Below, one piece after another: positions 5,532 through 60,441 of a stretch of 64,000 nt of DNA. The notes under the pieces were generated by a model. That model was not told the origin of the DNA, made no database searches, and worked only from the letters and a program-made list of their open reading frames with translations. Both the position numbers and the translations under genes were made by a program. The stretch lies in sequence record PZ445523.1; one strand, written 5' to 3'. The DNA comes from a phage. Positions within the stretch are counted from its first letter, which is position 1. Each line of letters begins with the position of its first letter.

Positions 5532-6710
5532 TTAAAAGTATTTTTTAAAACTCATCATAACTTTATCATCAACATCATTATCAATCTGTGCAACAAGGTA
5601 AGATGACAGTTCTACTTCTTGTGGCGCGGATTGAACATTATCAGAATTAAGATATTCACGAATCCAAGGATATGGATGTTTAACCGGAGCATCGGTAATT
5701 GGGCATGGAAGACCACACTGCTTCATACGAGATACAGTTAAGTAATCAATAAAGCTCCACATGCTATTTGTATTTAATCCAGGAACATCGCCATCTTTAA
5801 ATAAATGAACTGCCCAATCTTTTTCTTGGCGGTTAACTTCCATGAAAATATCAACTGCTTCTTGCTCACACTCTTGAGCAATTTTAACCCATTCATCGCC
5901 ATCAGTGCCAAGTTGAAGTTGACGAATAATATATTGAGTGCCTTTAAGGTGAAGCTGTTCATCACGTGCAATGAACTTCATAATCTTGGCATTACCTTCC
6001 ATGATTTCCATATTCTTATGAAAGTTAAAGGTACATGCAAAAGATACATAAAAACGAATAGCTTCCAATGCGTTGATTACATGAAGGCAAAGATAAAGAG
6101 ATTTCATTAGTGCTCGTTTAGCTTCGGCTTCTTGTTTAATAGCTCGATTTAAACGAAAATCAGCATCAGGAGATTCTTTAGCTAGTTCTACAAATTCTTT
6201 AGCATTTTCCCATTCACGAGTTTTAATCAGAACATCATCATAATAACGTCCAATGGATTCAGCACGTTTCATAATAGCTTCATCTAGTACAATCTCATCA
6301 AATACCTTTGACGGATCAGTATAAAGATTTCGCATGATATGTGTATATGAACGGCTGTGAATAGTTTCACTAAAAGTCCACGTAGCAACCCATGTATCAA
6401 GGCTCGGGTCTGAAATTAATGACATAAGTACAGCAGACGGCGCACGACCCTGAATGCTATCCAAAAGCGATTGATACTTCAGATTATTAGTAAAAATATT
6501 TTGCTGATACTGAGGAAGCTTATTAAACTGTGCAGCATCCATCATTAAGTTTACTTCTTCGGGACGCCAGAAAAATGACAATTGCTTTTCGGTCAAATCT
6601 TCAAAAACTTTATGGCGTTGAATATCATAACGTGCAATACCAAGACCTGAACCAAAAAACATAGGTTCTTTTAAAACATCAACTGGATTTGTATTAAAAA
6701 CTGTGCTCAT
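5532..6710 (-). CDS. nrdB: ribonucleotide reductase small subunit, uninterrupted
   Basis: 392 aa continuous ORF; ferritin-like di-iron protein at the T4 nrdB position. Confidence 0.9.
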   Translation of the reverse strand: MSTVFNTNPVDVLKEPMFFGSGLGIARYDIQRHKVFEDLTEKQLSFFWRPEEVNLMMDAAQFNKLPQYQQNIFTNNLKYQSLLDSIQGRAPSAVLMSLISDPSLDTWVATWTFSETIHSRSYTHIMRNLYTDPSKVFDEIVLDEAIMKRAESIGRYYDDVLIKTREWENAKEFVELAKESPDADFRLNRAIKQEAEAKRALMKSLYLCLHVINALEAIRFYVSFACTFNFHKNMEIMEGNAKIMKFIARDEQLHLKGTQYIIRQLQLGTDGDEWVKIAQECEQEAVDIFMEVNRQEKDWAVHLFKDGDVPGLNTNSMWSFIDYLTVSRMKQCGLPCPITDAPVKHPYPWIREYLNSDNVQSAPQEVELSSYLVAQIDNDVDDKVMMSFKKYF

Positions 6711-11693: not shown

Positions 11694-12037
11694 TGAAAAG
11701 AGTCATGAGCATATCCGCTAGCGTCAATCATTTTAACTAAAGTTACCATTCCTCTGTTAACTGCTTGCGCGATTTCATCAAAAACTTCGTCACTATCATC
11801 GTAAAGATCATTAAAAAGTTCTAACACGTTCTTCTGAACTTTTAATTTACGGCCGACAATTTCGCCTACAGTAAATTCGTTTCCGCCAAATCCAGCGTAA
11901 AATGTAATTACACCCATTAACTGGCTTTCACGGGAATCTATGTCGTGTGATAAATTAATAAAAGCCGTCCCAGGCGCGGTTTTAAGTTGGCAACGAATTT
12001 TTACTTGGGTAATTCCAGTTATATGAATGTTAGACAT
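11678..12037 (-). CDS. hypothetical protein (frd.2 position)
   Basis: 119 aa ORF. Confidence 0.45.
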
Positions 12038-12047
12038 AATATTTTCC

Positions 12048-12290
12048 TCAGACAGACTTTTTCACAATTTTCCAATCAGCTTTAAACTGCTCGACGTCAG
12101 AATGGTAAATCCAGAATCCTGCGCTTTCTCCGTCTTCATAAAGAGGACATCCATCGCATTCATCTTCCCATCCCATATCACGTAAAAGATGTTCAGCTTT
12201 TTCAACAAGTTCAGAATCTTTACCGATGATATTAAAATACCATTTACCTCTAACTTCCGAATCTTTAATGCTCTGACGTTGTAATCTCAT
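12048..12290 (-). CDS. hypothetical protein (frd.3 position)
   Basis: 80 aa ORF with CDGC pair; early promoter element about 12395-12430 upstream. Confidence 0.45.
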   Translation of the reverse strand: MRLQRQSIKDSEVRGKWYFNIIGKDSELVEKAEHLLRDMGWEDECDGCPLYEDGESAGFWIYHSDVEQFKADWKIVKKSV

Positions 12291-12428
12291 TTTATTCTCC
12301 TTAGCAAGCTTTAATCAAAAGATATAAACAAACCAACATAACTGCTGCCATAATATAAGGTGCGAACATTTTCTTTTCTCCATTAGTTTTGATAGGGTAA
12401 TAGTATCACACTACTACCCTGTTGTAAA

Positions 12429-12830
12429 CTACTTTTTGAAAGTTTTTCGCAAAAGTTCAATGATTTCATCTGCATTGTTTTCATCTACAATGCAGTGAAT
12501 TTTTGTTACACCAGAAACCTTGTCTTTAACTTCATCCTCTTCAGAAGTCGGTTCTTTATATTCGCGGAAACAATAAAACTCTTCTTCACTAAGTTCAAAA
12601 TAATCATCACCCATACCATCATCATTATAGATTTCACCATTAGCACAAATGATTTCGGTTACATAATCAAATCCATCTAAACTTGATATTGATTTAACTT
12701 CAAACCAACCACCATTTTCTTGAATGATGCCGACCATACTAGCATTTGATGAACTAATATCAATGAAAGATTTAATACGATGTGGATTTAACTCGTATTT
12801 TTTGCCGATTTCCATTTTGATTTTCCTCAT
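12429..12830 (-). CDS. hypothetical protein
   Basis: 133 aa acidic ORF; hairpin 12843-12860 upstream. Confidence 0.45.
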   Translation of the reverse strand: MRKIKMEIGKKYELNPHRIKSFIDISSSNASMVGIIQENGGWFEVKSISSLDGFDYVTEIICANGEIYNDDGMGDDYFELSEEEFYCFREYKEPTSEEDEVKDKVSGVTKIHCIVDENNADEIIELLRKTFKK

Positions 12831-12860
12831 TTTAATAGGGGCTTGATAGCCCCTTGATAA

Positions 12861-13088
12861 TTATTGTTCAATCAGTCCCATGTAAAATTCTGCGTCTTCA
12901 GCATCCATACCGTCGCAGTATTCATTAGCCATAAAGCGGGTGAGGTCTTCAAGAGGACCTTCAATAACGATTTGAATACTCCAAAACTTAGAATCTTGCA
13001 CGCTTGTAATACTAAGTTCAGGATAACGATTACGAATAATCTCTTCAATATATTCAAAATCAACAATATCAATATCAACTTTAGCCAT
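12861..13088 (-). CDS. hypothetical protein
   Basis: Start taken at MAKVDID (ATG 13088) with AAAGAGGAAAATAAT-ATG RBS; track ORF extends to 13151 across the promoter. Confidence 0.45.
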
Positions 13089-13124
13089 ATTATTTTCCTC
13101 TTTAATTATTAGCAGTATTGTCGA

Positions 13125-13161
13125 TAGTTGTATAGTACCATGGAAGGACAAGGATGTAAAC
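13125..13161 (-). promoter_or_regulatory. phage early promoter (repeat family copy)
   Basis: Minus strand GTTTAC, 18 nt, TGnTACTAT; conserved flanks CAACTATCGACA shared with other copies. Confidence 0.6.
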
Positions 13162-13182
13162 AGTTTTGTGAAAAAATTTTTG

Positions 13183-13211
13183 AAATAAAAAAGGGGACCT
13201 CTAGGGTCCCC
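13183..13211 (-). terminator. rho-independent terminator after gene 32
   Basis: GGGGACC-TCTA-GGGTCCCC hairpin followed on the minus strand by TTTTTTATTTC. Confidence 0.75.
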
Positions 13212-13233
13212 AATTAATTAGTAATATAATCTA

Positions 13234-14139
13234 TTAAAGGTCATTCAAAAGGTCATCCAGGTCCGTGTCATCAGCACTAGATGAACTGCCAGAGCTTGAG
13301 CTCATAAAATCATCTTCAGTTTTTGTATTGAAGTCATCAACATTGAATGCATCCAAATCATCAGCAACTTTATCAGCTTTCTTAGCAGCAGTTGCAGCGG
13401 CACCGCCCATCACAGCAGTTCCCATAACTTGACTGAACTTAGTGCTCAGTTCTTCAAACGATTTGAATTTATCTTTAGAAGTCATTTCAGAAAGGTCAAC
13501 CATTTGTTCGAACAGTTCTTTCTGGAAAGATTCATCGTCAATGTTTGGAATCGCAGATTGATTTAGGAATTTAGATTCATCGTAGTTACTAAATCCAGAA
13601 ACTTGTTTAACTTTCAGTACAAAGTTAGCACCTTCCCACGGACAAGTTACATCAACTGGAGTTTCACCCATTTCAACATCAACCGCAATCATCGCGTTGA
13701 TTTTATCCCAGATTTTCTTACCGAAACGATATTTAAATACTTTACCTTCATTTTCTGGAGCAGCTGGGTCTTTTACAACAAGAATATTAGCCCAGTAAGA
13801 AGTTTTACGTTTAACAAGATTGTACTCTTTATTGTCAGTGTTGTACAGATCATTTTTACTGATGTATTGACATACTGGGCAAGAATCGTAATCACCATGG
13901 GTAGATGAACATGTTTCAATATACCATTTACCATTTTTCTTGAAACCGTGATTTACAAGAATTGCGAATGGTGCTTGTTCATCATTTTTAGACGGAAGAA
14001 AACGAATTACTGCTTGACCGTTACCCGCATTATCGAGTTTCAGTTTCCACTCGCCTTTATCTTCAGAAGAAAAACCTTTATTGCCATTCAGTTTAGCCAT
14101 TTGTGCAGCAAGTTCAGCAGTAGATTTACGTTTAAACAT
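13234..14139 (-). CDS. 32: single-stranded DNA-binding protein gp32
   Basis: 301 aa; zinc subdomain H..C..C..C ([15 protein letters not shown]); acidic C-terminal tail. Confidence 0.95.
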
Positions 14140-14200
14140 TTTATTTCCTTTTTAATTTAATTTAATTAACAGTTGGTGCTATGACACTTTACCTCATAGC
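14140..14200 (-). promoter_or_regulatory. gene 32 translational operator (pseudoknot plus A/U-rich gp32 binding tract)
   Basis: Minus strand reads GCCAGCTATGAGGTAAAGTGTCATAGCACC...TTAATTAAATTAAATTAAAAAGGAAATAAA-ATG, the known T4 gene 32 leader architecture. Confidence 0.75.
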
Positions 14201-14826
14201 TGGCATAATTCGCAATACTCTGGGTCTTCGAGAGGTATCCAACCTGAGTTGAAATACTTTACCATCGATTTAGCAGTTGTATCAGTTATATTTATATTAC
14301 CTTTAACTCTTCGCCATCCAGGAGTTTTACCGTACAGATTAGAGGATAATAATAACACATAATTCTCGTAAGCGATATGAGATAATTTCCAAGACTCTAT
14401 ATTAGCTCGTGATGTTTTCCAAGGTCTAAAATCGTCACGGTTCATATAATTAGCCAATCTCATATGCTCTCTAACTTCCGGGTCTTTGGCTGGATGAGTT
14501 TCACCACTCACACCAAATCCACCACCAGCATATACCAGATTAAAATAGTCTGGATTATCTCTGGCATTTACTTCAAGTTGGTATTTTCGTTCTGCTTCAA
14601 TAACATCCAAGTCATCATCAATTTGAATTATTTTAACGCTCGGTTTTTGAAGCATTACCGCATTCAAAAATCTTTTTTGTTTACATGAGCTCCAGTATTC
14701 CTTTCCAGAAGAGTCATATATTATTCCGTTCTCAAATGAGCAATTTAATTTACTACCGATATAGTAGTATGGCGGAGTCTTATTTTTGACACGGTCTTCA
14801 AATGTAAACCAATATACTATATTCAT
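14194..14826 (-). CDS. segG: GIY-YIG homing endonuclease, SegG-like
   Basis: 210 aa; N-terminal NIVYWFTF ... YYYIGSK GIY-YIG-like module; lies between 32 and 59 as T4 segG does. Confidence 0.6.
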   Translation of the reverse strand: MNIVYWFTFEDRVKNKTPPYYYIGSKLNCSFENGIIYDSSGKEYWSSCKQKRFLNAVMLQKPSVKIIQIDDDLDVIEAERKYQLEVNARDNPDYFNLVYAGGGFGVSGETHPAKDPEVREHMRLANYMNRDDFRPWKTSRANIESWKLSHIAYENYVLLLSSNLYGKTPGWRRVKGNINITDTTAKSMVKYFNSGWIPLEDPEYCELCQL

Positions 14827-14827
14827 A

Positions 14828-15481
14828 TCAATACTTGCAAGATTTCACAGTTTCAATGAAAACATTTTTAGCTTTCTGTGAATCAATATTTAAAATTTTT
14901 CTATAAGCCTTTAACTTTATAGAATAATTATTCCAGACTAAATTATCAGTCTGTTCATCATGTTTATCAATTATATTTAAAAATGAATCAAGCAAGATAA
15001 ACGTCTCAAACGAAATTATGTTCGATTGCAGAAGTTTAAAAATATAACTTGACTGAACCTTTGGATTATATTCAAAGATTTCTTTAAAAGCAGAAACTTC
15101 AACTTTTTTACTAAAATAGTAAATATTGCGAATATCTTCTTCAAACTTAAATTTAATTTGCTTCAAGCGTCCGATATATTCACGATAAAACACAAGTGCA
15201 TCAGCGTCAGAGATGTCGCCAATCCAAGCATCTTGGTTAGCAACCAAATTACTTATAAAGATTAAAGCAAGTTCCTTTAATTTATATTTTTCTGATAACT
15301 TCTGGAAAAAATACTTATCCCTTCGCTTTTGATAAGCGGCATCAGACACCCGCATGCACCAATTATACTTAATTACATCATACTTTCCATTCATATGTTG
15401 TTTTATCATTAAGTATAATTTATAAACTGATTTACCATCAATGTATCTTTCACCACCAGCAGGCATGCGGAGTTTAATCAT
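14828..15481 (-). CDS. 59: helicase loader gp59
   Basis: 217 aa, same length and N-terminus (MIKLRMPAGGERYIDG) as T4 gp59. Confidence 0.88.
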   Translation of the reverse strand: MIKLRMPAGGERYIDGKSVYKLYLMIKQHMNGKYDVIKYNWCMRVSDAAYQKRRDKYFFQKLSEKYKLKELALIFISNLVANQDAWIGDISDADALVFYREYIGRLKQIKFKFEEDIRNIYYFSKKVEVSAFKEIFEYNPKVQSSYIFKLLQSNIISFETFILLDSFLNIIDKHDEQTDNLVWNNYSIKLKAYRKILNIDSQKAKNVFIETVKSCKY

Positions 15482-15816
15482 AGTAGAAAATCTAATGTAT
15501 TAGTTTTTTCACAACGAACAACAGAAGGACGTAAAAGATTTTCGTCAATAGCTTCTGACTGAATTTTTTCAATTATACCCGAAGGAATAAATTTAGCAAA
15601 TTGAGTTTCAGGAATAGAGTTTTCTTCTAAGAATGCTGTCGTAGCTTCAAGATAACTCATTCCAAACTCTTCTACCATTTTTTCAATAATAAATCCATTT
15701 TCTTGACGATCAAGAAGCTTTGCTATTTCATCCTTTTCTTTCTTGATTGAAAGTTCTTTTTCTGAAAGACCGGTCTCATCGACCGGACGAATATCATTTA
15801 GAGAAAACTGTGTCAT
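15478..15816 (-). CDS. 33: late transcription co-activator gp33
   Basis: Start taken at MTQFSL (112 aa, T4 gp33 size); syntenic. Confidence 0.7.
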   Translation of the reverse strand: MTQFSLNDIRPVDETGLSEKELSIKKEKDEIAKLLDRQENGFIIEKMVEEFGMSYLEATTAFLEENSIPETQFAKFIPSGIIEKIQSEAIDENLLRPSVVRCEKTNTLDFLL

Positions 15817-16063
15817 AAAGTTCAACTACCTCTTCGGTTTCAGCTTCAAACACATCACGGTTATCTTTATGATACAAAGCTAATAGACGATTAAACATCT
15901 TACCATCAACGCCAAGTTCATCTTTGGCACGAATTCGAATATCTTTAATCAGTTCATTATAACCGGAAATTTTCAGTTTATGATCAGATGCTTCTTTAAT
16001 AAATTTAGCCAAGTCTTCGCCGTGGATAGCTTCATCAAATTCAACCATTTCTTTTTTAGCCAT
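15794..16063 (-). CDS. dsbA: dsDNA-binding protein DsbA
   Basis: 89 aa, same as T4 DsbA; overlaps start of gene 33. Confidence 0.75.
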   Translation of the reverse strand: MAKKEMVEFDEAIHGEDLAKFIKEASDHKLKISGYNELIKDIRIRAKDELGVDGKMFNRLLALYHKDNRDVFEAETEEVVELYDTVFSK

Positions 16064-16071
16064 TATTCACC

Positions 16072-16989
16072 TCAAAATTCATTAATGCTATTAGTTAATT
16101 TAGAAAGACCCGCTTTTACAAAATATGAATAAATTTTGCCACGCGGTGGTAATTTATATGAATTATAGTAATTCACAATGTTTGAAGCAATATTATCAGG
16201 AATATAATCAAAATCAATTAGAATTAAATTTTCTTTATAACGATTATATTCAGATTCGGTGAGAAGCACCTTAGCTTGCTCACGGTCATTAGCAATAGCT
16301 TCAACGATTGAAGTTTTCATTGAAGGAGTTCGTTCACCTTCAACTCTGGTAAACCAAAAGTCAGATCGTACTTTAACTGAAGCAACGTTATCCTTTTTGT
16401 CGCCTTTAAGGATTTTAGTCATACAGTCAATTTCAGCAGAACCGCTTTTAATTTTAACCCATTTCTTATGCATCGGAGACCATTGCTTAACATTTGGATA
16501 TTTGTGAAGCTGAGTAAAGTCACCATCAGATGAAATGATTAAAATCTTATGTCCTTCTAAGGAGAACTTTTTAACAAGAACAGCAATGTGGTCATCTGCT
16601 TCATACTTATCAATATCCATAACAATGTATGGCATATAAGCTTTCAATTCATCTATAACTTTATGGCTGGATTCAAAATAACCTTCCCAGTCCCAAGTAG
16701 ATTCTTCTCGTGCTTTTCCACGGTTTTTCTTGTAATAATAAGCGAAATCACGACGCCAGTATCCAGATTTCGCGTTATCAATACACAGCACAATTTTAGT
16801 GTATCCAAGCGTTTTTGCTTTTTTGACATTAAACTTAATTGAGTTCAATATCAAATGACGAACCATCGATAAATTAATTTTTTCTTTATCTGGGAAGTTT
16901 ACCAGAGCAGTTGAAAGAGCAATTTGACTAAAGTCAATTAAGCAAATTCCTTCTTTGTAGTCTTCATCCAGCATCATTTCTAAATCCAT
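16072..16989 (-). CDS. rnh: RNase H / 5'-3' exonuclease
   Basis: Start taken at MDLEMM (305 aa, T4 size; track ORF extends to 17004); FEN-family acidic motifs. Confidence 0.9.
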   Translation of the reverse strand: MDLEMMLDEDYKEGICLIDFSQIALSTALVNFPDKEKINLSMVRHLILNSIKFNVKKAKTLGYTKIVLCIDNAKSGYWRRDFAYYYKKNRGKAREESTWDWEGYFESSHKVIDELKAYMPYIVMDIDKYEADDHIAVLVKKFSLEGHKILIISSDGDFTQLHKYPNVKQWSPMHKKWVKIKSGSAEIDCMTKILKGDKKDNVASVKVRSDFWFTRVEGERTPSMKTSIVEAIANDREQAKVLLTESEYNRYKENLILIDFDYIPDNIASNIVNYYNSYKLPPRGKIYSYFVKAGLSKLTNSINEF

Positions 16990-17011
16990 ATGAACCTCGT
17001 TCAATTAGTGA

Positions 17012-17048
17012 GATTTCTATTATATACTATCTAAATCTTAAAGTAAAC
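17012..17048 (-). promoter_or_regulatory. sigma70-type phage early promoter for rnh
   Basis: Minus strand reads GTTTAC (17048-17043), 18 nt spacer, TATAAT (17024-17019), about 25 nt before rnh ATG. Confidence 0.6.
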
Positions 17049-17051
17049 AGG

Positions 17052-17059
17052 TATAAATA
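17052..17059 (+). promoter_or_regulatory. late promoter (TATAAATA) for gene 34
   Basis: Exact TATAAATA 35 nt upstream of gene 34 ATG. Confidence 0.75.
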
Positions 17060-17093
17060 CTTATTATTGAAAACACAATAGGAGCCCGGGAGA

Positions 17094-20000
17094 ATGGCCG
17101 AGATTAAAAGAAAGTTCAGAGCAGAAGATGGTCTGGACGCAGGTGGCGATAAAATAATCAACGTAGCTTTAGCTGATCGTACCGTAGGAACTGACGGTGT
17201 TAACGTTGATTACTTAATTCAAGAAAACACAGTTCAGCAATATGATCCAACTCGTGGATATTTAAAAGATTTTGTAATCATTTATAATAATCGTTTTTGG
17301 GCAGCAACGGATAATATTCCAAAACCTGCTGGAAATTTTAATAGAATTCGTTGGAAAGCATTACGTACTGATGCTGTATATACAACCGTATCATCTGGAC
17401 CATATCAATTAAAATCCGGAGAAGCAATTTCAGTAGATACATCAGTTGGCAATGACATTGAATTTACTTTACCACCTTCTCCGCTTGATGGAGAAACCGT
17501 AATAATTCAAGATATCGGTGGAAAACCTGGCATAAATCAGGTTAAAATAAATTCTTCAAATCAGAGTATTGTCAATTTTAGAGGTGAACAGGTACGTTCA
17601 GTTTTAATGACTCATCCAAAGTCACAGATGGTATTCATTTTTAATAACCGTTTGTGGCAAATGTATGTTGCTGATTATAGCAGAGAAGCTGCAATTGTTA
17701 CTCCATCGACTGCATATCAAGCACAATCTAACGATTTTATCGTACGTAGATTTACTTCTGCCGCACCGATTAATGTTAAGCTTCCAAGATTTGCCAATCA
17801 TGGAGATATCATTAATTTCGTTGATTTAGATAAATTAAATCCACTTTATCATACAATTGTTACGACATATGATGAAACAACGTCAGTGCAAGAAGTTGGA
17901 ACTCATTCCATTGAAGGCCGTACATCGATTGACGGTTTCTTGATGTTTGATGATAATGAGAAATTGTGGAGATTGTTTGACGGGGATAGTAAAGCACGTT
18001 TACGCATTATAACAACTAATTCTAATATTCGTCCAAATGAAGAAGTCATGGTATTTGGCGCGAATAATGGAACAACCCAAACAATTGAACTTCAGCTTCC
18101 GACTGATATTTCTGTTGGTGATACTGTTAAAATTTCCATGAATTACATGAGAAAAGGACAAACAGTTAAAATCAAAGCTGCCGGTGAAGATAAAATTGCT
18201 TCTTCAGTTCAATTGCTGCAATTCCCAAAACGCTCAGAATATCCGCCTGAAGCTGAATGGGTAACAGTTCAAGAATTAGTTTTTAACGGTGAAACTAATT
18301 ATGTTCCAGTTTTACAACTTGCTTATATAGAAGATTCTGATGGAAAATACTGGGTTGTACAGCAAAACGTTCCAACTGTAGAAAGAGTAGACTCTTTAAA
18401 TGCTTCTACTAGAGCAAGATTAGGCGTAATTGCTTTAGCTACGCAAGCTCAAGCAAATGCTGATTTAGAAAATTCTCCACAAAAAGAATTGGCAATTACT
18501 CCAGAAACGTTAGCTAATCGTACTGCTACAGAAACTCGCAGAGGTATTGCAAGAATAGCAACTACTGCTCAAGTGAATCAGAACACCACATTCTCTTTTG
18601 CAGATGACCTTATCATCACTCCTAAAAAGCTGAATGAAAGAACTGCTACAGAAACTCGTAGAGGTGTCGCTGAAATTGCTACGCAGCAGGAAACTAATAC
18701 AGGTACTGATGATACTACAATCATCACTCCTAAAAAGCTTCAAGCCCGTCAAGGTTCTGAATCATTATCTGGTATTGTAACTTTTGTATCTACCGCAGGT
18801 GCTACTCCAGCTTCTAGTCGTGAATTAAATGGTACGAATGTTTATAATAAAAACACTAATAATTTAGTTGTTTCACCTAAAGCTTTGGATCAGTATAAAG
18901 CTACTCCAACGCAACAAGGCGCAGTAATTTTAGCAGTTGAAAGTGAAGTAATTGCTGGACAAAGCCAAGAAGGATGGGCAAATGCGGTTGTAACGCCAGA
19001 AACGTTACATAAAAAGACATCAACTGATGGAAGAATTGGTTTAATTGAAATTGCTACGCAAAGTGAAGTTAATACAGGAACTGACTATACTCGTGCAGTC
19101 ACTCCTAAAACTTTAAATGACCGTAGAGCAACTGAAAGTTTAAGTGGTATAGCTGAAATTGCTACACAAGTTGAATTCGACGCAGGCGTCGACGATACTC
19201 GTATCTCTACACCATTAAAAATTAAAACCAGATTTAATAGTACTGATCGTACTTCTGTTGTTGCTCTATCTGGATTAGTTGAATCAGGAACTCTCTGGGA
19301 CCATTATACCCTTAATATTCTTGAAGCAAATGAGACACAGCGTGGTACACTTCGTGTAGCTACACAAGTTGAAGCTGCTGCAGGAACATTAGATAATGTT
19401 TTAATAACTCCTAAAAAGCTTTTAGGTACTAAATCTACTGAAGCGCAAGAAGGTGTTATTAAAGTTGCAACTCAGTCTGAAACTGTGACTGGAACGTCAA
19501 CAAATACTGCTGTATCTCCAAAAAATTTAAAATGGATTGTGCAGAGTGAACCTACTTGGGCAGCAACTACTGCGATAAGGGGCTTTGTTAAAACTTCTTC
19601 TGGTTCAATTACATTCGTTGGTAATGATACGGTAGGTTCAACACAGCCATTAGAATCATATGAGAAAAATGGTTATGCAGTATCACCATATGAATTAAAT
19701 CGCGTATTAGCAAATTACTTGCCATTAAAAGCAAAAGCTGTAGATAGTAATTTATTAGATGGTCTAGATTCGCTCCAGTTCATTCGTAGGGACATTGCAC
19801 AAACAGTTAATGGTTCACTAACCTTAACCCAACAAACGAATCTGAGTGCCCCTCTTGTATCATCTAGTACTGCTACATTCGGTGGGTCAGTTTCAGCAAA
19901 TAGTACATTAACTATTTCTAATACTGGAACAGCAACTCGATTGATTTTTGAGAAAGGACCTCAAACTGGAACAAACCCGGCTCAAACGATGACTGTCAGA

Positions 20001-22149: not shown

Positions 22150-22800
22150 ATGGCTGATTTAAAAGTAGGTTCAACTGTAGGTGGATCTGTCATTTGGCAT
22201 CAAGGAAATTTTCCGTTGAATTCAGCCGGTGACGATGTACTCTACAAATCATTTAAAATATATTCAGAATATAATAAACCACAGGCAGCTGATAATGATT
22301 TCGTTTCTAAATCTACTGGTGGTACTTACACAGGCCCAGTTACTATTAATTATGGTGTAAATAGTTATCTTCAATTAAGTAATAATGAAACCCCCATCCG
22401 AATTCGTTCTGGTGGCGGCACTGGTAATACTCTTGTAGTTGGTGGCTCTTCTGGCGGTATTAGTTTTAGACCAGCAGGTAGTGAAATCACTACTGGACAA
22501 ATTACTATTACGCCAGAAGGTTTGACAACATTTACCAAAGCTGTAACGGCTCCATCTGTAACTGTTACATCTACTCCTTCCGCAGCATCTGATGTTACTC
22601 GTAAAGATTATGTTGATGGAGCAATAAATACTGTTACAGCAAATGCAAACTCTAGGGTATTACGCTCTGGAGACACTATGACAGGAAATTTAACTGCGCC
22701 AAACCTTTTTTCACAGAATCCTGCATCTCAACCTTCACACGTTCCACGATTTGACCAAATCGTAATTAAGGATTCTGTTCAAGATTTCGGCTATTATTAA
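22150..22800 (+). CDS. 36: long tail fibre distal connector gp36
   Basis: 216 aa; own TATAAATA late promoter at 22119-22126. Confidence 0.9.
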
Positions 22801-22808
22801 GAGGACTT

Positions 22809-25754
22809 ATGGCTACTTTAAAACAAATACAATTTAAAAGAAGCAAAACCGCAGGTCAACGTCCTGCTGCTTCAGTATTAGCCGAAGGTGAATTGGCTAT
22901 AAACTTAAAAGATAAAACAATTTTCACAAAAGATGACTCAGGTAGTGTTATAGAATTAGGTTTAAAATATGGAGGAACAATTGATGGTTCTTTAACTGTT
23001 AATGGAAGCATAATTGGAAATTTAACAGGTAACGCTGCAACTGCAACGAAATTAAAAACAGCACGAAAAATTAATGGTATATCCTTTGATGGGTCAAAAG
23101 ATATCACGCTAACTCCATCTGACATAAATGTCAATAGCACAACGTTTATAAAAAATAACGGCGAATTACCTGTTGATGCTAATTTAGATGAGTATGGGCC
23201 TGTTGAAGAATATCTTGGAGTTTGGTCGAAAGCAACTTCAACCAACGCTCAACCAGCAAATAAATTTCCAGAAGAAAATGCTGTAGGTGTTCTAGAAGTA
23301 TTTGTGGCCGGTCAATTTGCTGGTACTCAGAGATATACAACTAGATACGGAAATGTTTATATTCGTTCCTTGACTGCTACATGGAACGGAGTAAACGGTC
23401 CGTGGAGTGCGTGGCGAAATATTCAATCTGGTACTCGTCCACTGTCAACAACGATTGATCTTAATGATCTAGGAGGCGCTGAACACCTTGGTTTGTGGCG
23501 AAATAGTTCAAATTCCATTGCTACCTTTGACAGAAATTTCCCAGAAGAAGGATCGTCCGCTCAAGGACTTTTAGAAGTATATGAAGGTGGAAACTATTCT
23601 CGCACACAGAGATATACGACCAGATTTGGTGTTGTTTATACTCGTTGTCTTGCTGCTGCGTGGGATGCTTCTGCGCCTAAATGGGGACCTTGGCAACAAG
23701 TCGGTAATGTCACACCGGCGACTTTCTATGACGGAGATCTGAATGATTTTAAAATTCCTGGGTTATATAATATTTTAGGCACTGATGCCGTTATTAACTG
23801 TCCTACCGGTGAAGGTTTGCCGACTGTTATTGTTGGTTTGCTGGAAGTTAAACAGCGCGCTTCTGGCGGTGCTATTTTCCAAAAATTTACTACTGCCGGA
23901 ACGGGTTCAACTACTCGCGATCGTATTTTTGAGCGTGCATATACTGGTGGTGCGTGGGGTGCATGGAACGAAGTATATACATCTTATTCCCTGCCAATTA
24001 CTTTGGGTATGGGTGGTATTAAAGCTCAATTAGCGGAGTTAGATTGGCAAACATTTGATTTTGTTCCTGGTAGTATGTTTAGCGTTCCTTTGAACAAAAT
24101 AAAGAACATGCCAGCAAATATGAATTGGGGCACGATTGATGGAAACCTGGTTATGTTTTCCGTTGGTCCTAGCGAACACACTGGCACAGGACGTACTGTT
24201 CAGATTTGGCGCGGCACCGTATCCCAGACAAACTACCGTTATTTTGTCGTTCGTGTATTTGGTAATTCAGGAAATAGAACTTGCACAGTTCGCCGTGTTG
24301 TTCTTGAAGACGGATCACATACTTGGACTGCTCAACAAAACTTTAGGGGATTGCTGAATATCACTGCTGCTGTTAATCTTGGTGCTAATCAGAAAATTTC
24401 ACTTGCTCCAGGAGCATATATTCAAGCCCCTGCTAGCGGTTCTGGTTCTAATACTTACGCAAATCAGAATACTACCATTGCACCATTATATCAGGCCATT
24501 GACGATTCAAATAAAAACCAGTTTGCACCAATTGTTAAACAGAAAAACACTGTAAGTAATATCACCTTTGCCACTGGTATGGCTATAGGTACATCCGAAT
24601 ATAAGATCATTGCTCAGGGTGATTTATCCGCTAATGGAACAGCAGATGGGTTAAAACAATGGACTTTCATGCCGTCAGGTTATTTTAAATCTCCAGGGCG
24701 TGTATATGTTGGTGATGCGTTCCTTAATACAGATGGTAATATTGCCGGTTCAATCTGGAAGAAATATAACAATGCGACAAATTTAGATGCTGCCTTGAAT
24801 ACTCGCGTAGGTAAAGGCGGTGATACGATGACAGGTCGGTTAACAATCAATGCACCTAATGATTCTATTGTATTATCAACAACTGCTAGTAATTCTTTGT
24901 ATATTCGCGGTGACATAGACGGGACTGGTAACTGGTATATTGGCAAGGGTGGTGCTGATAATTCGCTAGCATTTTATAGCTATGCTTCTCAGGCGGCAGT
25001 ACATATCACAAACAATGGTGAGATTGCGTTAAACCCGCAAAATACCGCAATGGTTAACGTTAACCGCGACCGTGTACACATTAACGGTTCTGGATGGATT
25101 GCTAGACAACCGGGTGATTGGGGCAACCAATGGCGAGTAGAAGCTCCATTATTCGTTGATCATGGTTATGTTGGTCAAGATAGTTATTATCCTATTCTTA
25201 AAGCAAGAAGCGTTATAACCAATCAAGGATATAGCACCGCTGTTGACTTTGGTATGCGTCGTATTCCATCACAGTGGGGGCAAGCAATCATTCGTGTCGG
25301 ATCCACGGAGGCTTCTCCTGATGCTGGACACCCACAAGCTGTGTTTGAATTCCATCATGATGGATTCTTTTATACACCAGGAAATGGTAGCTTTAGCGAT
25401 GTGTATATTCGTTCTGACTCCCGTCTCAAGATTAATAAAGAAGAATTAGAATATGGAGCAGTCGAAAAAGTTTGCCGACTGAAAGTTTATATTTACGATA
25501 AAGTTAAGTCTATTAAAGACCGTAGTGTTATTAAACGTGAAGTTGGTATTATTGCTCAGGACCTTGAAAAGGAATTACCGGAAGCTGTATCTAAAGTTGA
25601 AGTTGATGGATCTGATGTTCTGACAATTTCTAACTCTGCTGTGAATGCTCTTTTAATTAAGGCTATTCAGGAAATGAGTGAAGAAATTAAAGAATTGAAA
25701 ACGCCTCTCTTTACTAAAATTGCTCGCAAAATTAGTAAATATTTTAAATTCTAA
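22809..25754 (+). CDS. 37: long tail fibre distal subunit gp37 with C-terminal intramolecular chaperone domain
   Basis: 981 aa; conserved N-terminus [13 protein letters not shown]; C-terminal SDSRLK ... coiled segment typical of autocleaving chaperone domains. Confidence 0.92.
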
Positions 25755-25760
25755 CAACAA

Positions 25761-25780
25761 GGGGGAAATGCCCCCTTTGG
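25761..25780 (+). terminator. hairpin after gene 37 (weak terminator / RNA stability element)
   Basis: GGGGG-AAATG-CCCCC followed by TTTGG; SD for gene 38 follows. Confidence 0.4.
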
Positions 25781-25790
25781 AGTATAAATT

Positions 25791-26573
25791 ATGGCAGTAG
25801 TTGGAGTTCCTGGCTGGATTGGAAGTTCAGCCGTAAATGAAACGGGTCAGCGCTGGATGAGTCAAGCGGCTGGTCAATTAAGATTGGGTGTTCCTTGCTG
25901 GATGAGTCAATTTGCAGGTCGCTCACGAGAAATTATTCACACGCTTGGAGCAGACCATAACTTCAATGGTCAATGGTTCCGAGATAGATGTTTTGAGGCA
26001 GGTAGTGCACCTATAGTGTTTAATATTACAGGTGATTTAGTATCATATTCTAAAGATGTTCCTTTATTCTTCATGTACGGAGATACACCAAATGAATATG
26101 TTCAGTTAAATATACATGGCGTAACGATGTATGGTCGTGGAGGTAATGGTGGTAGCAATAGTCCTGGCTCAGCTGGGGGTCATTGTATTCAAAACGATAT
26201 TGGTGGGAGACTAAGAATTAATAATGGCGGAGCTATTGCAGGCGGCGGTGGCGGCGGTGGCGGCGGATATTATTCTCCTTTTTCACAAATGAGATTGACC
26301 TTTGGCGGTGGTGGCGGTCGTCCTTTTGGTGCGCCAGGCGGATCTATTGATATGCAATCAGGCGCGACTGGTGGTACTATTTCTTCACCTGGCTCAGGAT
26401 CCGTGAATGGTATCTATAATGGTGGAAACGGTGGTGAAGTAGGTTCCGCGGGAGGTAGATGCAATATTCGCGGTCAAGGATCTGAATATGATGGCGGTGC
26501 TGCTGGTTATGCTGTCATAGGGTCCGCTCCAACATGGCAAAATGTTGGAGCAATATATGGTCCAAGAGTATAA
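25791..26573 (+). CDS. 38: receptor-binding adhesin gp38, glycine-rich T2/T6 type
   Basis: 260 aa with several poly-Gly motifs ([27 protein letters not shown]) separated by variable segments. Confidence 0.85.
26241..26268 (+). repeat. GGC/GGT codon repeat encoding poly-Gly within gene 38
   Basis: ggcggcggtggcggcggtggcggcgga. Confidence 0.8.
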
Positions 26574-26603
26574 TGTGAATAAATACCCTTAAAAGGAGGG
26601 TCT

Positions 26604-29352: not shown

Positions 29353-29988
29353 TCACAGTTCAGATGCTACAGTGATTACAGCTTCAATGTTTTCTGCCGA
29401 GCGTTTAATGTCAAGATACACATTACCGTTTTTAGCGATTTTACATGACATTCCGATGTCAGTAAATTTCTGAATATGATGTTCCATCATTTTGTATCCA
29501 AAAATTCGCATATTTCCATTGTTGTTAATTTCAAAATTACGAATTCCGTGAGTACGTTTTTCTAAAATAGCGAGATAGTTACTACGATAAGTTTCAACCT
29601 TTTTAAGAACAAATCCATTTTCATCTAAAAGTTTTAACATGAAGTCTTTATCTTCTTCCATATCGGAAGTAATTTCGCGAGCTTTACGAGTTGCTCGTTT
29701 TTTCAGCAGTTCCGGAGCATTTTCTTGTGCGTATAAAGTTGCTGCATTTGAAATAATATCCTGAGCTTCGCCTGTAATGATTAATCCATCACCAGATTTC
29801 TCTACCAGGCCTTTTTTAATCAATACCCCAATATTACTATTAACTACTGCGTTACCTAAATCTGGATGCACCTCACGAACTTCTGCAGCTGTAATGAAAT
29901 CTTTCTTAGCAATAGTAATTAAAATCGCAGCAGTTTTTTCATTCAGAACATCGTTAGAAGCTTTGATGATGTAAGTTACTTTAGACAT
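29353..29988 (-). CDS. motA: middle-transcription activator MotA
   Basis: 211 aa; sequence MSKVTYIIKASNDVLNEKTAAILITIAKKDF matches T4 MotA. Confidence 0.93.
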   Translation of the reverse strand: MSKVTYIIKASNDVLNEKTAAILITIAKKDFITAAEVREVHPDLGNAVVNSNIGVLIKKGLVEKSGDGLIITGEAQDIISNAATLYAQENAPELLKKRATRKAREITSDMEEDKDFMLKLLDENGFVLKKVETYRSNYLAILEKRTHGIRNFEINNNGNMRIFGYKMMEHHIQKFTDIGMSCKIAKNGNVYLDIKRSAENIEAVITVASEL

Positions 29989-30023
29989 TTTCTAATCTCC
30001 GTAATTCTGTATCAGTAGTTGAT

Positions 30024-30059
30024 AGTTGTATAGTACCACAGTATGCTTTGGTTGTAAAC
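30024..30059 (-). promoter_or_regulatory. phage early promoter (repeat family copy) upstream of motA
   Basis: Minus strand GTTTAC (30059-30054), 18 nt, TACTAT (30035-30030). Confidence 0.6.
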
Positions 30060-30077
30060 CATTTTGTGAAAAAAATT

Positions 30078-30107
30078 AAAATAAAAAGGGAGAGCCGAGG
30101 CTCTCCC
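30078..30107 (-). terminator. rho-independent terminator between motA.1 and motA promoter
   Basis: GGGAGAGCC/GGCTCTCCC hairpin followed on minus strand by TTTTTAT. Confidence 0.65.
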
Positions 30108-30113
30108 TAAAAT

Positions 30114-32822: not shown

Positions 32823-33040
32823 CATTTTACACCATTCCAAATTGTTTCAACCACGGATTTTAAACCATTTTGATGAATATCAATTCCGACTACTGTCATC
32901 AAATAGATTCCAACTACAACTGAACCTAAGGCAAAAATCAGCATGAAAATGAATAAAGCCGGAAAAATATTATCGAAAAACCATTCAATAAATGTAAAAG
33001 CATTACGTTTACGCTTCATATTTTCCTCACATAAATCCAA
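32822..33040 (-). CDS. small membrane protein
   Basis: 72 aa ORF with TM helix (FPALFIFMLIFALGSVVVGIYLMTVVGI). Confidence 0.45.
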   Translation of the reverse strand: MDLCEENMKRKRNAFTFIEWFFDNIFPALFIFMLIFALGSVVVGIYLMTVVGIDIHQNGLKSVVETIWNGVK

Positions 33041-33140
33041 AATAAACGTTTAATACATCAATCATTAAAACGATTGGGAATATACTCAAAACTACTAGTA
33101 TTATAACTACATTCCATATAGCTTTAATAATCTTTTTCAT
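33027..33140 (-). CDS. small membrane peptide
   Basis: 37 aa MKKIIKAIWNVVIILVVLSIFPIVLMIDVL...; track ORF extension to 33275 reads through the promoter repeat. Confidence 0.4.
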   Translation of the reverse strand: MKKIIKAIWNVVIILVVLSIFPIVLMIDVLNVYFGFM

Positions 33141-33205
33141 TTTGTGTTCCTCCGTAGTTGATAGTTGTATAATACCACAGAGGAACAGTCTTGTAAACAA
33201 CTTTT

Positions 33206-33304
33206 TTAAAAATATTCGTAATAAATGTGAATACCAACTACTACCGCTGAAACCTGTGCAACCCACCACGCACAAGCAATAAGTACAGAATTCAAAATTT
33301 TCAT
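33206..33304 (-). CDS. small hydrophobic peptide
   Basis: 32 aa ORF MKILNSVLIACAWWVAQVSAVVVGIHIYYEYF. Confidence 0.3.
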   Translation of the reverse strand: MKILNSVLIACAWWVAQVSAVVVGIHIYYEYF

Positions 33305-33383: not shown

Positions 33384-33656
33384 TCATAGTTCAATCTCAG
33401 CGATTTTCATTTCATTACTATTAATAGCCGCTTTAAGACTATCTGAAAGAATTACATTCCAGTGGTCATTCATATGACCATTAACTAAGCGTGTAATTTC
33501 TTCGGGAGTTGAAAAATAAGGCGTATCAGACTCCCAATGCGATAATCCTAAGCGAGTATAAATCATACCTTCATCATCGCTAGAATATTCAACTGACACA
33601 AACTCATCAGTTATTTTATGCTTAGCATAATAAAATTTAAATTTCATTTTACTCAA
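33384..33656 (-). CDS. hypothetical protein
   Basis: 90 aa ORF. Confidence 0.45.
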   Translation of the reverse strand: MSKMKFKFYYAKHKITDEFVSVEYSSDDEGMIYTRLGLSHWESDTPYFSTPEEITRLVNGHMNDHWNVILSDSLKAAINSNEMKIAEIEL

Positions 33657-33871
33657 TAATCCGCTAAAAGATCAACGATTGCATCACGAAGACACTTATT
33701 CGCAATACGTTTAAGAGCAATTTCAGTTTCTGGAGCATTTTGAATAATCATTGAATTCAATTCAGCCTCAGCAAACTGAAGTTCTTTAACTAATTCAGCT
33801 TTATATTTTCCTTGTCCTTTCTTAGCTTTTGCTCGTTTTAATTCAGCTGTAGTAAACATTTTATTCTCCAA
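33653..33871 (-). CDS. hypothetical protein
   Basis: 72 aa ORF; early promoter element 33881-33940 upstream. Confidence 0.45.
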   Translation of the reverse strand: MENKMFTTAELKRAKAKKGQGKYKAELVKELQFAEAELNSMIIQNAPETEIALKRIANKCLRDAIVDLLADY

Positions 33872-33941
33872 ATCCGTATCAGTAGTTGATAGTTGTATAG
33901 TACCACGGTCCTTGTGGTATGTAAACCGTTTTGTGAAATTT

Positions 33942-34499
33942 TTAAATGGAAAGATACCATCCGTTGTAGTTGCTTTTTCTTACAACCTTACGAAGGTCTT
34001 CTCTGTCACCGATGAACTTCGGAGTGTACTGGATGACACCTGGATGAATTTCTTTAGTGTTGAATATAATTATACAGTCAGCGACTTGATGATTTAGAAT
34101 GGGCCCTAGATTTATTCCAGAACCATATGGATACTCTCCGCTGCATCCTGTTGTCACCGAAATCCAACGTGAGTCAGTTTGATGTGTCTTAACTTCTACA
34201 CGAAGCCCACAGTATCTTGGATGTGCTAAAACATCCCATGCATATGTGTACGGATCATCGACATCTTCTTGACCTTTATTGACATATCCACTTAGCCAAT
34301 CTGCCACAAAAAACTCTGCGTACACAGCGATACGGCATCTTTCGATAACTTCTGCTTTATCCTGGTTCGGGTTTTGTTTTAAAGAATATCTTGCTGTATC
34401 AGCAATTTTGACCTTCATTTCACTAGTCAAGTCACTGTTCGATAGGGTAAATGTCGGAATCTGAAATAGTCTCTGTAACCCAGGATTCGTTTTCTGCAT
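33942..34499 (-). CDS. denB: endonuclease IV
   Basis: 185 aa, same as T4 DenB; syntenic upstream of ndd block. Confidence 0.8.
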   Translation of the reverse strand: MQKTNPGLQRLFQIPTFTLSNSDLTSEMKVKIADTARYSLKQNPNQDKAEVIERCRIAVYAEFFVADWLSGYVNKGQEDVDDPYTYAWDVLAHPRYCGLRVEVKTHQTDSRWISVTTGCSGEYPYGSGINLGPILNHQVADCIIIFNTKEIHPGVIQYTPKFIGDREDLRKVVRKSNYNGWYLSI

Positions 34500-34555
34500 T
34501 TAAACTTTCCTTTATGTCGGAATCACTGATATTCATATAATAAATCATAATTTCT

Positions 34556-34581
34556 CTTAAAACAAAAGGGCCGAAGCCCTT
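34556..34581 (-). terminator. C(UUCG)G-type hairpin plus U-tract, copy 1
   Basis: AAGGGC-CGAA-GCCCTT (minus transcript loop UUCG) followed on minus strand by TTTTGTTTT. Confidence 0.55.
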
Positions 34582-34583
34582 AT

Positions 34584-34778
34584 TTATTTGAATTGTGCAA
34601 TTCTTTTCTCTAAACAGTCAGCATAAGATTTCATTGAGATAAACTGCGAAAGCAGCAGTTCTTGCTCAACTGCACTAACTGTTAGAAACTTTGTGCTTTC
34701 TAAAAATTTACTCAGTGCATTAATTTTGAGCATTAATTGATCGTATTCTTCTTTTACTCGTGCTTGATAACCTAACAT
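34584..34778 (-). CDS. hypothetical protein flanked by duplicated hairpins
   Basis: 64 aa ORF; RBS AAGGAAAATT-ATG; bounded by two near-identical GGGCCGAAGCCC hairpins. Confidence 0.5.
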   Translation of the reverse strand: MLGYQARVKEEYDQLMLKINALSKFLESTKFLTVSAVEQELLLSQFISMKSYADCLEKRIAQFK

Positions 34779-34796
34779 AATTTTCCTTAATATGAT

Positions 34797-34812
34797 AAGG
34801 GCCGAAGCCCTT
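34797..34812 (-). other. C(UUCG)G-type intercistronic hairpin, copy 2 (at rIIB stop)
   Basis: Same 21 bp sequence as copy 1; no U-tract. Confidence 0.5.
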
Positions 34813-40027: not shown

Positions 40028-40071
40028 TTATCCTCGTTTGGTTTCGGGAATATTATACTCCGGTAATCATA

Positions 40072-40094
40072 AAGCTAAAGGCCCGAAGGCCTTT
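40072..40094 (-). other. intercistronic UUCG hairpin downstream of gene 39 start region
   Basis: AAAGGCC-CGAA-GGCCTTT. Confidence 0.45.
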
Positions 40095-40354
40095 TATTTA
40101 AAACGGATAGTCGAATCCTTAAAGAACAGCCCAGAACACACGGTTCCTTCTACTTTCTGCCCGGTAGGTCCAATAGCACGAAATCCAGTATGTTGGAAAT
40201 CATTTTCAGAGCAACCGAACCAGTTATATCCAGTGATTTCAATATTAGTAAAACCACTTGAAGACAAAACTTTGGTTGCATTATCAGCATCAGTACATCC
40301 TACTAAAGACACTACTAATACTAATGCTGCGATAGAACGATTAATATATTTCAT
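40094..40354 (-). CDS. putative lipoprotein
   Basis: 86 aa; signal peptide plus lipobox LVGC; four Cys in mature part. Confidence 0.5.
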   Translation of the reverse strand: MKYINRSIAALVLVVSLVGCTDADNATKVLSSSGFTNIEITGYNWFGCSENDFQHTGFRAIGPTGQKVEGTVCSGLFFKDSTIRFK

Positions 40355-41543: not shown

Positions 41544-41712
41544 AATTTCCTCATTAATTGAACATTGGAGCGATGCGTTTCAGAAGAGTATCAGCACCTT
41601 TAACGAATTATCCATTTTATTCTCCAAGTTGTTTTCTGTATCAGTAGTTGATATTGATATAGTACCATAATCAACTACTGATGTATATAGTTTTATGAAA
41701 AAATTTTAAACT

Positions 41713-57809: not shown

Positions 57810-57834
57810 TCATTTTTTCCATAGGCATCATTAT

Positions 57835-59878: not shown

Positions 59879-60259
59879 TCACTTAGTCAAATTTTTTACA
59901 CATGAATTATAAGAATTCACTACATACTCCATCGGAGCATTTTTACCTGTACGCCATTGGTAATTATTAGCCCAATTTGCCCAAAGTTCAGCGCAGTAGT
60001 TTTCAATTTTTTCTTCGCGTGTAATTACATCCGAATTACGATATGCTTGAGCAGATTCATCTGGACGAATAGCTTCGTCAAAATTCGCCTGCATTTGTTC
60101 TACTGTCTGTTTTGGAGCTTCTTTATAACACTTGACATTAGGATTATAAAATTTGCTTGAACAGTTTACAATTTTTCCTACATCAGACTGATTTACTACC
60201 GGTCCTTGAGCTACACAACCAGTAAGACCTAATGCAATAACCAAAATAGCGATTTTCAT
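59879..60259 (-). CDS. putative lipoprotein (imm.1 position)
   Basis: Start taken at MKIAILVIALGLTGC (lipobox); track ORF extension to 60370 reads through promoter repeat. Confidence 0.5.
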   Translation of the reverse strand: MKIAILVIALGLTGCVAQGPVVNQSDVGKIVNCSSKFYNPNVKCYKEAPKQTVEQMQANFDEAIRPDESAQAYRNSDVITREEKIENYCAELWANWANNYQWRTGKNAPMEYVVNSYNSCVKNLTK

Positions 60260-60284
60260 TTCATTCTCCAAATCCGTATCAGTT

Positions 60285-60323
60285 GATAGTTGTATAGTAC
60301 CACAGAGGAACAGTCTTGTAAAC
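60285..60323 (-). promoter_or_regulatory. phage early promoter (repeat family copy) upstream of imm.1/imm
   Basis: Minus strand GTTTAC (60323-60318), 18 nt, TGGTACTAT (60302-60294). Confidence 0.6.
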
Positions 60324-60402
60324 AGTTTTGTGAAAAAATTTTTTAATGAATTCAAAGGGTCCAGAATCATCTGTTTTTCATAAGTATAGATTTATATTAC
60401 TT

Positions 60403-60422
60403 GTATGAAAAAGGGACCCGGA
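60403..60422 (-). other. intercistronic hairpin between 43 and imm.1 promoter
   Basis: GGGACC-CGGA-GGTCCC. Confidence 0.45.
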
Positions 60423-60441
60423 GGTCCCTAGATTTATTCTA

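Follow-up and report, generated by a model that had tools for sequence, protein, structure and literature searches.

A dispersed family of probable T4-type early-promoter cassettes with a conserved motif at the transcription start in a PST-like phage

The window analysed here is a 64,000-nucleotide stretch of a phage genome (sequence record PZ445523.1). At positions 13,121 to 13,165 it carries a short element that recurs almost unchanged elsewhere on the minus strand, which raises the question of what these repeats are and why their similarity continues beyond the promoter hexamers into the putative transcript. A sequence-only reading had proposed a multi-copy early promoter with a conserved transcribed leader at six loci.

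The window best matched Yersinia phage PST and its relatives, with ~98% identity over genes 32, 59, segG, rnh and 34 (megablast of positions 12000-20000, which matched 773 phage records). By blastn, T4 132.9-168.9 kb plus 0-30.5 kb is collinear with the window at 77-99% identity, mostly 89-99%, and this collinearity is broken by indels. The G+C content is 31-41% across the window, and the GC skew is negative except at 18-28 kb. The PST-like match and the T4 collinearity place the window, as judged from the alignments, in the early and tail-fibre region of a Tequatrovirus, with the minus strand carrying the early genes.

Several T4 stretches have no counterpart in the window: T4 138457-139058, inside nrdB and overlapping the annotated ORF of I-TevIII; T4 139719-140420, in the mobE region; and T4 143546-144564, inside td and overlapping I-TevI. 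Topoisomerase genes 39 and 60, which in T4 are split by the mobA/60.1 insertion, lack it here, so the gene-60 bypass region is not expected, and the regions of segF, dam, segA and beta-gt are either missing or replaced. The window sites of these T4 differences are 6034/6037, 6710/6766, 9892/9893, 38542/38607, 51002-51969 and 57797-58744. The distal tail-fibre region (genes 36-38; 22328-26579) gave no nucleotide alignment with T4, which fits a gp38 adhesin of the PST/T2 type (PMC4122927), and gene 34 (18495-19420) contains the tandem-like protein repeats ITPxxLxxRTATETRRGIAxIAT usual in long tail fibres (repeat families D2 and D6). Another family (D3), a GC-rich hairpin with a T/A-run, AAGGGCCGAAGCCCTTATTTA, is present in three copies (34551-34586, 34782-34817 and 40063-40098), which in the rIIB and 39 regions probably act as terminators, either in both directions or on the minus strand.

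A repeat finder assigned the element to a family (D1) of seven members, all on the minus strand, which were placed in a multiple alignment (A1). All six loci of the sequence-only reading were recovered, together with a more diverged seventh copy that it had not listed. Another repeat, D7 (CATTTTATTCTCCAAATCCGTATCAGT), joins D1 as a multi-copy composite ending with an SD and start codon. Searched with up to one mismatch, the 15-mer TACTATACAACTATC had 5 matches against 0.00 expected from 100 dinucleotide shuffles, and CTATCAACTAC had 8 against 1.03 expected, a number never reached in the shuffles. By BLAST, one copy had 3716 matching places, spread over 605 phage records at about six to a genome. 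The copies and their neighbouring terminators are as follows, with +1 positions predicted.

13086..13185, minus strand: copy 1, frd.3 cassette (repeat member 13119-13189), with UP region 13162-13185, -35 GTTTAC 13156-13161, TGG and -10 TACTAT 13132-13137, +1 A 13125, motif CTATCGACAAT 13117-13127 (divergent after +3) and ATG 13086-13088.
13193..13211, minus strand: intrinsic terminator at the end of gene 32, GGGGACCCTAGAGGTCCCC then a T-run, directly upstream of copy 1.
29986..30083, minus strand: copy 2, motA cassette (member 30017-30087), with -35 30054-30059, -10 30030-30035, +1 30023, CTATCAACTAC 30015-30025, leader TGATACAGAATTAC, SD GGAGATTAGAA (RegB-type with one mismatch) and ATG 29986-29988.
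30087..30108, minus strand: intrinsic terminator, AGGGAGAGCCTCGGCTCTCCCT then a T-run, directly adjoining copy 2 upstream.
33138..33222, minus strand: copy 3, ndd.4 cassette (member 33156-33226), with -35 33193-33198, -10 TATTAT 33169-33174, +1 33162, CTATCAACTAC 33154-33164 followed directly by the SD GGAGGAA, and ATG 33138-33140.
33857..33950, minus strand: copy 4, overlapping the denB 3' end (member 33884-33954), with -35 33921-33926, -10 33897-33902, +1 33890, CTATCAACTAC 33882-33892, TGATACGGATTT, an exact RegB/S1 site GGAGAATAAAA 33859-33869 and ATG 33857-33859.
41613..41712, minus strand: copy 5, between motB and cef (member 41646-41716), with a decayed -35 ATATAC 41683-41688, -10 41659-41664, ATATCAACTAC 41644-41654, an exact RegB/S1 site 41615-41625 and ATG 41613-41615 of an 11-codon mini-ORF.
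60257..60347, minus strand: copy 6, imm.1 cassette (member 60281-60351), with -35 60318-60323, -10 60294-60299, +1 60287, CTATCAAC then TGATACGGATTT with a 4-nt TACT deletion, SD GGAGAATGAAA and ATG 60257-60259.
60412..60429, minus strand: intrinsic terminator following gene 43, ahead of copy 6.
12367..12453, minus strand: copy 7, diverged (member 12387-12457), with -35 12424-12429, -10 TACTAT 12400-12405, TACC then CTATCAAAACT 12385-12395, and ATG 12367-12369 of a 22-aa ORF that precedes frd.1.

The genes served by these copies are frd.3, frd.1, motA, ndd.4, an ORF beside denB, the cef region and imm.1, and all copies lie on the early strand, oriented with the early genes and with an SD and ATG 30-50 nt downstream. 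The ORF downstream of copy 1 is 98.7% identical to T4 frd.3, and the T-tract of the gene 32 terminator runs into the UP region of this copy. Copy 2 is identical to its T4 ortholog. The 68-aa ORF downstream of copy 4 had no match in the T4 sequence searched, and a junction of the T4 alignment falls at 33857, in this copy. The element of copy 5 is found unchanged ahead of cef in T4. With its weak -35 this copy may be inactive; it precedes only the mini-ORF MDNSLKVLILF before cef (window 41580-41615, minus strand; T4 6470-6660), and appears to be the remnant of a cassette and gene start that were inserted there.

Every copy has a TGn-extended TAnnnT -10 behind an 18-nt spacer, and GTTTAC at -36..-31 is exact in 6/7, the cef-region copy having ATATAC instead. 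The -10 is TACTAT preceded by TGG except in the ndd.4 copy (TATTAT) and copy 7 (TGA with TACTAT). An A/T-rich UP region, AAATTTTTTCACAAAAC-like, occupies -40..-60 (0.71 bits/position in the family). A generic sigma-70 scan recovered six copies as TTTACA-17-TACTAT with TG, copy 5 with its ATATAC being the one not recovered. The proposed spacing of GTTTAC, 18 nt, TGnTACTATAC was mis-stated and fits no copy: the 18 nt separate GTTTAC from TACTAT, and TGG forms the last 3 nt of the spacer (15 nt + TGG). The literal pattern GTTTAC-N18-TGNTACTATAC had only a chance match, at 39790, and was replaced by the 15-mer search.

This anatomy is already known. T4 early promoters (Pe) have the consensus GTTTAC at -36..-31 (PMC1524935) and have been called 'uber UP/-35/TGn/-10 promoters' (PMC2988021). 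The window copies share with them the position of GTTTAC, the TGn-extended -10, the A/T-rich UP region and the minus-strand early genes downstream, and 6/7 are positional orthologs of scanned T4 promoter regions (frd.3, frd.1, motA, ndd.4, ndd.6/denB and imm.1); together with this synteny upstream of T4 early genes, the anatomy upholds the earlier description as a multi-copy early promoter. Nothing essential differs, although some orthologous spacers do, through exchange with other copies. Since promoters are not annotated in the T4 GenBank record, one note on Pe133295 excepted, T4 promoter names could not be transferred to the window; the short record L13089 annotates -35 and -10 at the T4 e.8 (msp1) copy. 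The literature search found no genome-wide T4 5'-end data. The primary descriptions of T4 early promoters are reportedly those of Liebig and Rueger in 1989 and Miller et al. in 2003.

The copies also resemble the PeSL cassettes (Arbiol et al. 2010, PMC2839356), composites of a stem-loop terminator, an AT-rich region, an early promoter, an SD and a start codon that are multi-copy, lie in variable regions and recombine with each other. The PST/T4 PeSL consensus, TTTACW-N17-TAYWAT preceded by an AT-rich region and closed at the 3' end by an SD and start codon (PMC4122927), fits every copy with an intact -35, and PeSL exchange between PST and T4 was described in the same ndd/denB variable region (Comeau et al. 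2014, PMC4122927). Unlike the full PeSL, only 3/7 window copies (frd.3, motA and imm.1) have the terminator stem-loop upstream; it is absent at the denB-side, ndd.4, cef-region and 12405 copies.

The repeats are thus very probably sigma-70-dependent Pe of a T4-like phage that recur in dispersed expression cassettes of ~90-120 bp, with the +1 and the early timing deduced from consensus and synteny. Read 5' to 3', the cassette consists of an optional terminator with a T-tract running into the A/T-rich UP region (TTTTTCACAAAAC), GTTTAC, 18 nt of spacer with TGG at its end, and TACTAT, followed by the discriminator ACAA or TACC (-6..-3), CTATCAACTAC at -2..+9, a short, unstructured and G-poor leader, a GGAG-type SD (GGAGAAUAAAA) and the ATG. 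Host RNA polymerase would contact the UP region through alpha-CTD, the -35 through sigma region 4, TGn through sigma region 3 and the -10 through sigma region 2, and the promoters would fire immediately after infection. The +1 is taken as the first A of CTATCAACTAC.

The feature is ordinary but for a motif at the transcription start that has been little discussed. Early-promoter-like sites were scanned as GTTTAC, an 18-nt spacer and TAnnnT with an SD and ATG downstream, the cef-region copy (-10 at 41664) being added manually, with a yield of 19 window sites and 23 T4 sites. In the alignment of the seven copies conservation is not limited to the -35 (1.20 bits/position) and the -10 hexamer (1.15): positions -2..+9 reach 1.02, compared with 0.52 in the spacer. 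The same positions have 0.23 bits/position in the other 12 window early promoters, a contrast with 1.02 that is partly circular, since the family is defined by this motif. Features independent of that definition nevertheless go with the motif, namely the TACTAT -10, CACAAA in the UP region and C at -5. CTATCAA(CTAC) at -2..+9 is conserved like the -10 in 7/19 early promoters and is background in the other 12, and because those 12 lack it the motif is dispensable for early-promoter function. Of the window promoters 5/19, and of the T4 promoters 9/23, have CTATCAA exactly at -2..+5, with 1e-4 expected per site.

The extent of the similarity had been put at about 20 nt into the transcript, which holds for +1..+9 generally and for +10..+18 (TGATACgGA) in only four copies. 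The proposed leader ACAACTATCAAC(TACT)GATAC is found in the members at 30017, 33884 and 60281 (the last without TACT) but not in those at 41646, which has the variant TCAATATCAACTACTGATAC, 13119, which diverges after +3 (ATCGACAATACTGC), and 33156, which passes directly into the SD after +9 (ATCAACTACGGAGGAA). The last 11-13 nt up to and including the ATG (GGAGAATAAAATG) are again common to the copies. The start region (13117-13137 and its equivalents) can also be read as imperfect tandem copies of the -10, TACTAT-AC-AACTAT-C-AACTAC-TGATAC, which may stem from slippage or serve, for example, as an alternative -10; taken as a sigma-dependent pause signal, its second element would lie partly upstream of +1. 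The motif does not seem to fit the start context reportedly favoured for NAD capping.

Strong coliphage promoters offer a functional analogy. Those of the T5 N25 type have a 'downstream sequence region', the transcripts of T7 A1 and lambda PL begin with AUC, and conservation from +1 to ~+20 in very strong sigma-70 phage promoters is thought to act on promoter escape. The likeness to the window copies lies in this conservation and in the A-U-C start; the sequence differs. CTATCAA straddles the predicted start as C-2, T-1, A+1, T, C, A, A, and most likely tunes the choice of start site (T-1/A+1, 7 nt after the -10), open-complex behaviour (-5C) and promoter escape. An A 7 nt after the -10 has the preferred start distance and base, and -5C is reported to shorten the half-life of the open complex, whereas G at this position stabilises it (PMC2613000). 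Among the 19 window promoters C at -5 goes with the motif subclass, at 5/8 against 0/11, and the non-family early promoters often have G there. The start-site motif would accordingly be part of the promoter in a wider sense, rather than an RNA element.

Functionless hitch-hiking of the sequence downstream of the -10, in young duplicates or in cassettes homogenised by gene conversion, is a rather unlikely explanation of its conservation, although the copies are clearly mosaic, both among themselves and between T4 and the window. The window frd.3 promoter matches its T4 ortholog at 22/24 UP positions, 20/21 at -12..+9 and 26/26 at +10..+35 but only 8/18 in the spacer, which agrees at 17/18 with the spacer of T4 e.8; one spacer sequence is common to the promoters of imm.1 and ndd.4 (-10 at 60299 and 33174), and the leader and first codons of copy 5 match the T4 e.8 promoter leader at 25/26. 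The repeat sometimes reaches the first codons, as in the 18-nt identity AATGAAATGAAAATCGCT between the imm.1 SD and start (60249-60266, minus strand) and the 3' end of the ORF at 33384-33656 (33393-33410, minus strand), and T4 recombination reportedly needs homology patches of less than 50 bp (PMC2839356). From these comparisons copy-to-copy gene conversion is evident, and accounts for part of the similarity. Pairwise identity among the copies is, however, only 0.39 in the spacer, near the 0.32 of unrelated promoters, yet 0.77 in the adjoining -2..+9, which argues that selection acts beyond copying. The same core, at the same position, was found in 5/10 promoters of a whole genome of another genus (Dhakavirus) scanned without requiring the motif, and (C)TATCAA(A/C) is retained in orthologous motA promoters, of phages with MotA 52-100% identical, although their spacers and leaders differ. 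In viral contigs, a scan for the exact pattern gave at least 120 stretches with the motif and at least 100 distinct spacers. The near-identity of the copies is therefore best read as the product of selection and copying together, the copying consisting of ectopic homologous recombination and gene conversion between cassettes, which would also make them gene-shuffling linkers as in the PeSL model. Only 2 of ~34 break ends of the window/T4 alignment lie inside cassettes (873 and 33857), compared with ~1 expected by chance from simple arithmetic, so the window alone gives no support for cassettes as preferred indel sites and the case for recombination rests on segment mosaicism.

A role of the leader as an RNA element, be it an mRNA-stabilising 5' stem-loop, a translational enhancer or S1 site, or the site of an RNA-binding protein, is unlikely. 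The leaders are C/A-rich and G-poor (0-3 G before the SD), and the motA and cef-region copies are predicted to form a weak 5' hairpin of 4 bp, AUCA/UGAU, which is absent from the 13137, 33174 and 12405 copies. When the seven leaders were folded, as the sequence-only reading had suggested, none did better than shuffled sequences (MFE 0 to -4.7 kcal/mol, z -0.9 to +1.0), and Rfam had zero matches in the window; a structured leader RNA was rejected on these results, and because of them the leaders appear to be selected to be open, so that the rest of the leader may serve to keep the ribosome site accessible. Their 3' part is of a proven kind of RNA target, since the SD-proximal block is a predicted RegB/S1 site: the consensus GGAGRAYARAA (Durand et al. 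2006, PMC1702504) is exact at 33859-33869 (copy 4) and 41615-41625 (copy 5) and has one mismatch in the imm.1, motA and 12405 copies. This accounts for the SD-proximal 11 nt only, not for -6..+18, and RegB/S1 needs no specific sequence 5' of GGAG (PMC1702504). In addition, the conserved CT at -2 and -1 and the subclass-specific ACAA/TACC at -6..-3 lie upstream of the predicted +1 and would never be transcribed; they could therefore act only on DNA or RNA polymerase. The SD may double as a RegB/S1 target through which the early mRNAs are later inactivated, a documented route in T4 with motA as a known RegB substrate (PMC1702504, PMC3014915). A function of the start-site motif as an operator or specificity determinant, for an early shut-off factor or for the response to Alt-ADP-ribosylated RNA polymerase, is very unlikely. 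Early shut-off and the promoter specificity of Alt are unexplained and are not set by -35, TGn or -10 (PMC2988021, PMC3014915), and the motif marks a subclass with linked variants, TACTAT being the -10 in 6/7 motif copies vs 2/12 others (p=0.006) and CACAAA occurring in the UP region of 4/7 vs 0/12 (p=0.009). The motif lacks, however, the dyad symmetry typical of operators, and a mutational scan of P8.1 found no single responsible position (PMC2988021).

That the repeat is a protein-coding module, with a real shared peptide KLFTRLFLCG(T/I)IQLST, is hardly credible. The peptide does occur in two long ORFs, 33027-33275 (minus strand, KKLFTRLFLCGIIQLST) and 59879-60370 (minus strand, TKLFTRLFLCGTIQLST), in each case upstream of the real start, MKKIIKAIW of ndd.4 and MKIAILVI of imm.1, so that it was correctly taken for an artefact and is rejected as coding: it is translated promoter ahead of these starts. 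Other copies read the conserved DNA in different frames (33838-33960 in another frame) or meet stops, the identity is at the nucleotide level and includes the SD and ATG of the known T4 proteins ndd.4 and imm.1, and the 4-nt TACT indel shifts the frame in T4. Both ORFs are consequently over-extended in annotation, with real starts at 33140 and 60259.

Some further observations concern the surroundings of these promoters and their relatives. In T4 the denB-side leader is joined directly to AATGAAATGAAAATCGCT, the indel junction lying in leader-like sequence, and T4 is therefore without the two ORFs at 33384-33871. Some phages with 100% identical MotA have an entirely different motA promoter and leader (loci L009-L011 vs L012-L013), another cassette swap. 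A MotA-box-like (T/C)GCTT(T/C)A, e.g. GTTTACttcTGCTTTAaac, is present in the spacer of the motA early promoter of many T4-like phages (L009-L011 and L014-L020, in the upstream 150 nt) and is absent from the motA promoters of the window and T4.

The promoters also differ in their surroundings. When -36..+30 of every promoter was folded, most non-family early promoters were found in a strong hairpin of -15 to -24 kcal/mol (z -2.5 to -6.7, to -5.9 in the window and to -6.7 in T4), in which the start region or leader, in many cases with the SD, is paired with the spacer (-30..-13), leaving the -10 in the loop. Hairpin-embedded -10 hexamers, all on the minus strand and also in the T4 orthologs, are located at 54830, 48572, 43371, 42254, 41664, 33174, 12405, 3889 and 911. 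Within the family, such a hairpin encloses the -10 of the 33174, 41664 and 12405 copies: in copy 3 the spacer TGTTCCTCTGTGG is complementary to ...CTACGGAGGAACA (-20.2 kcal/mol, z -4.9), in copy 5 the spacer ATCAGTAGTTGAT is the reverse complement of ATCAACTACTGAT in the start region (-20.2 kcal/mol, z -5.1), and in copy 7 the hairpin is formed by spacer and start region. The four core copies (13137, 30035, 33902 and 60299) have none, and 33902 has neither hairpin nor terminator. Hairpin and upstream terminator are nearly mutually exclusive in T4 (1/13 vs 6/10, p=0.019) and tend in the same direction in the window (0/9 vs 3/10). The geometry is that of the T4 e, soc, 49 and I-TevI promoters, which occupy the loop or the 5' arm of a hairpin, its 3' arm covering the ribosome site (PMC3014915), with the difference that the published promoters are late and those embedded here are early. 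The folding suggests that the ribosome site would be masked only in read-through RNA and open in promoter-proximal RNA.

In the accessible literature (the 1989 and 2003 primary descriptions excluded), no paper found names the start-site motif, and a search with the string returned unrelated papers; published T4 early-promoter alignments do show additional regions of consensus beyond UP/-35/TGn/-10 (PMC2988021). Members of the motif subclass are mostly located behind terminators, rather than inside hairpins. It is a speculative and, in our judgement, improbable proposal that the motif, together with the -5C discriminator, TACTAT and the TTTCACAAAAC UP region, marks a functionally distinct subclass of T-even early promoters in which it determines Alt stimulation, early shut-off or unusually short-lived open complexes, and not generic strength.

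The seven promoter copies mark seven transcription units in the window. For the most part they restate known T4 biology, in which insulated cassettes, each with a very strong early promoter, are reused and double as linkers in recombination. The start-site motif and the two architectures, terminator-preceded and hairpin-embedded, provide sequence classes with which the questions of Alt response and early shut-off may be approached.
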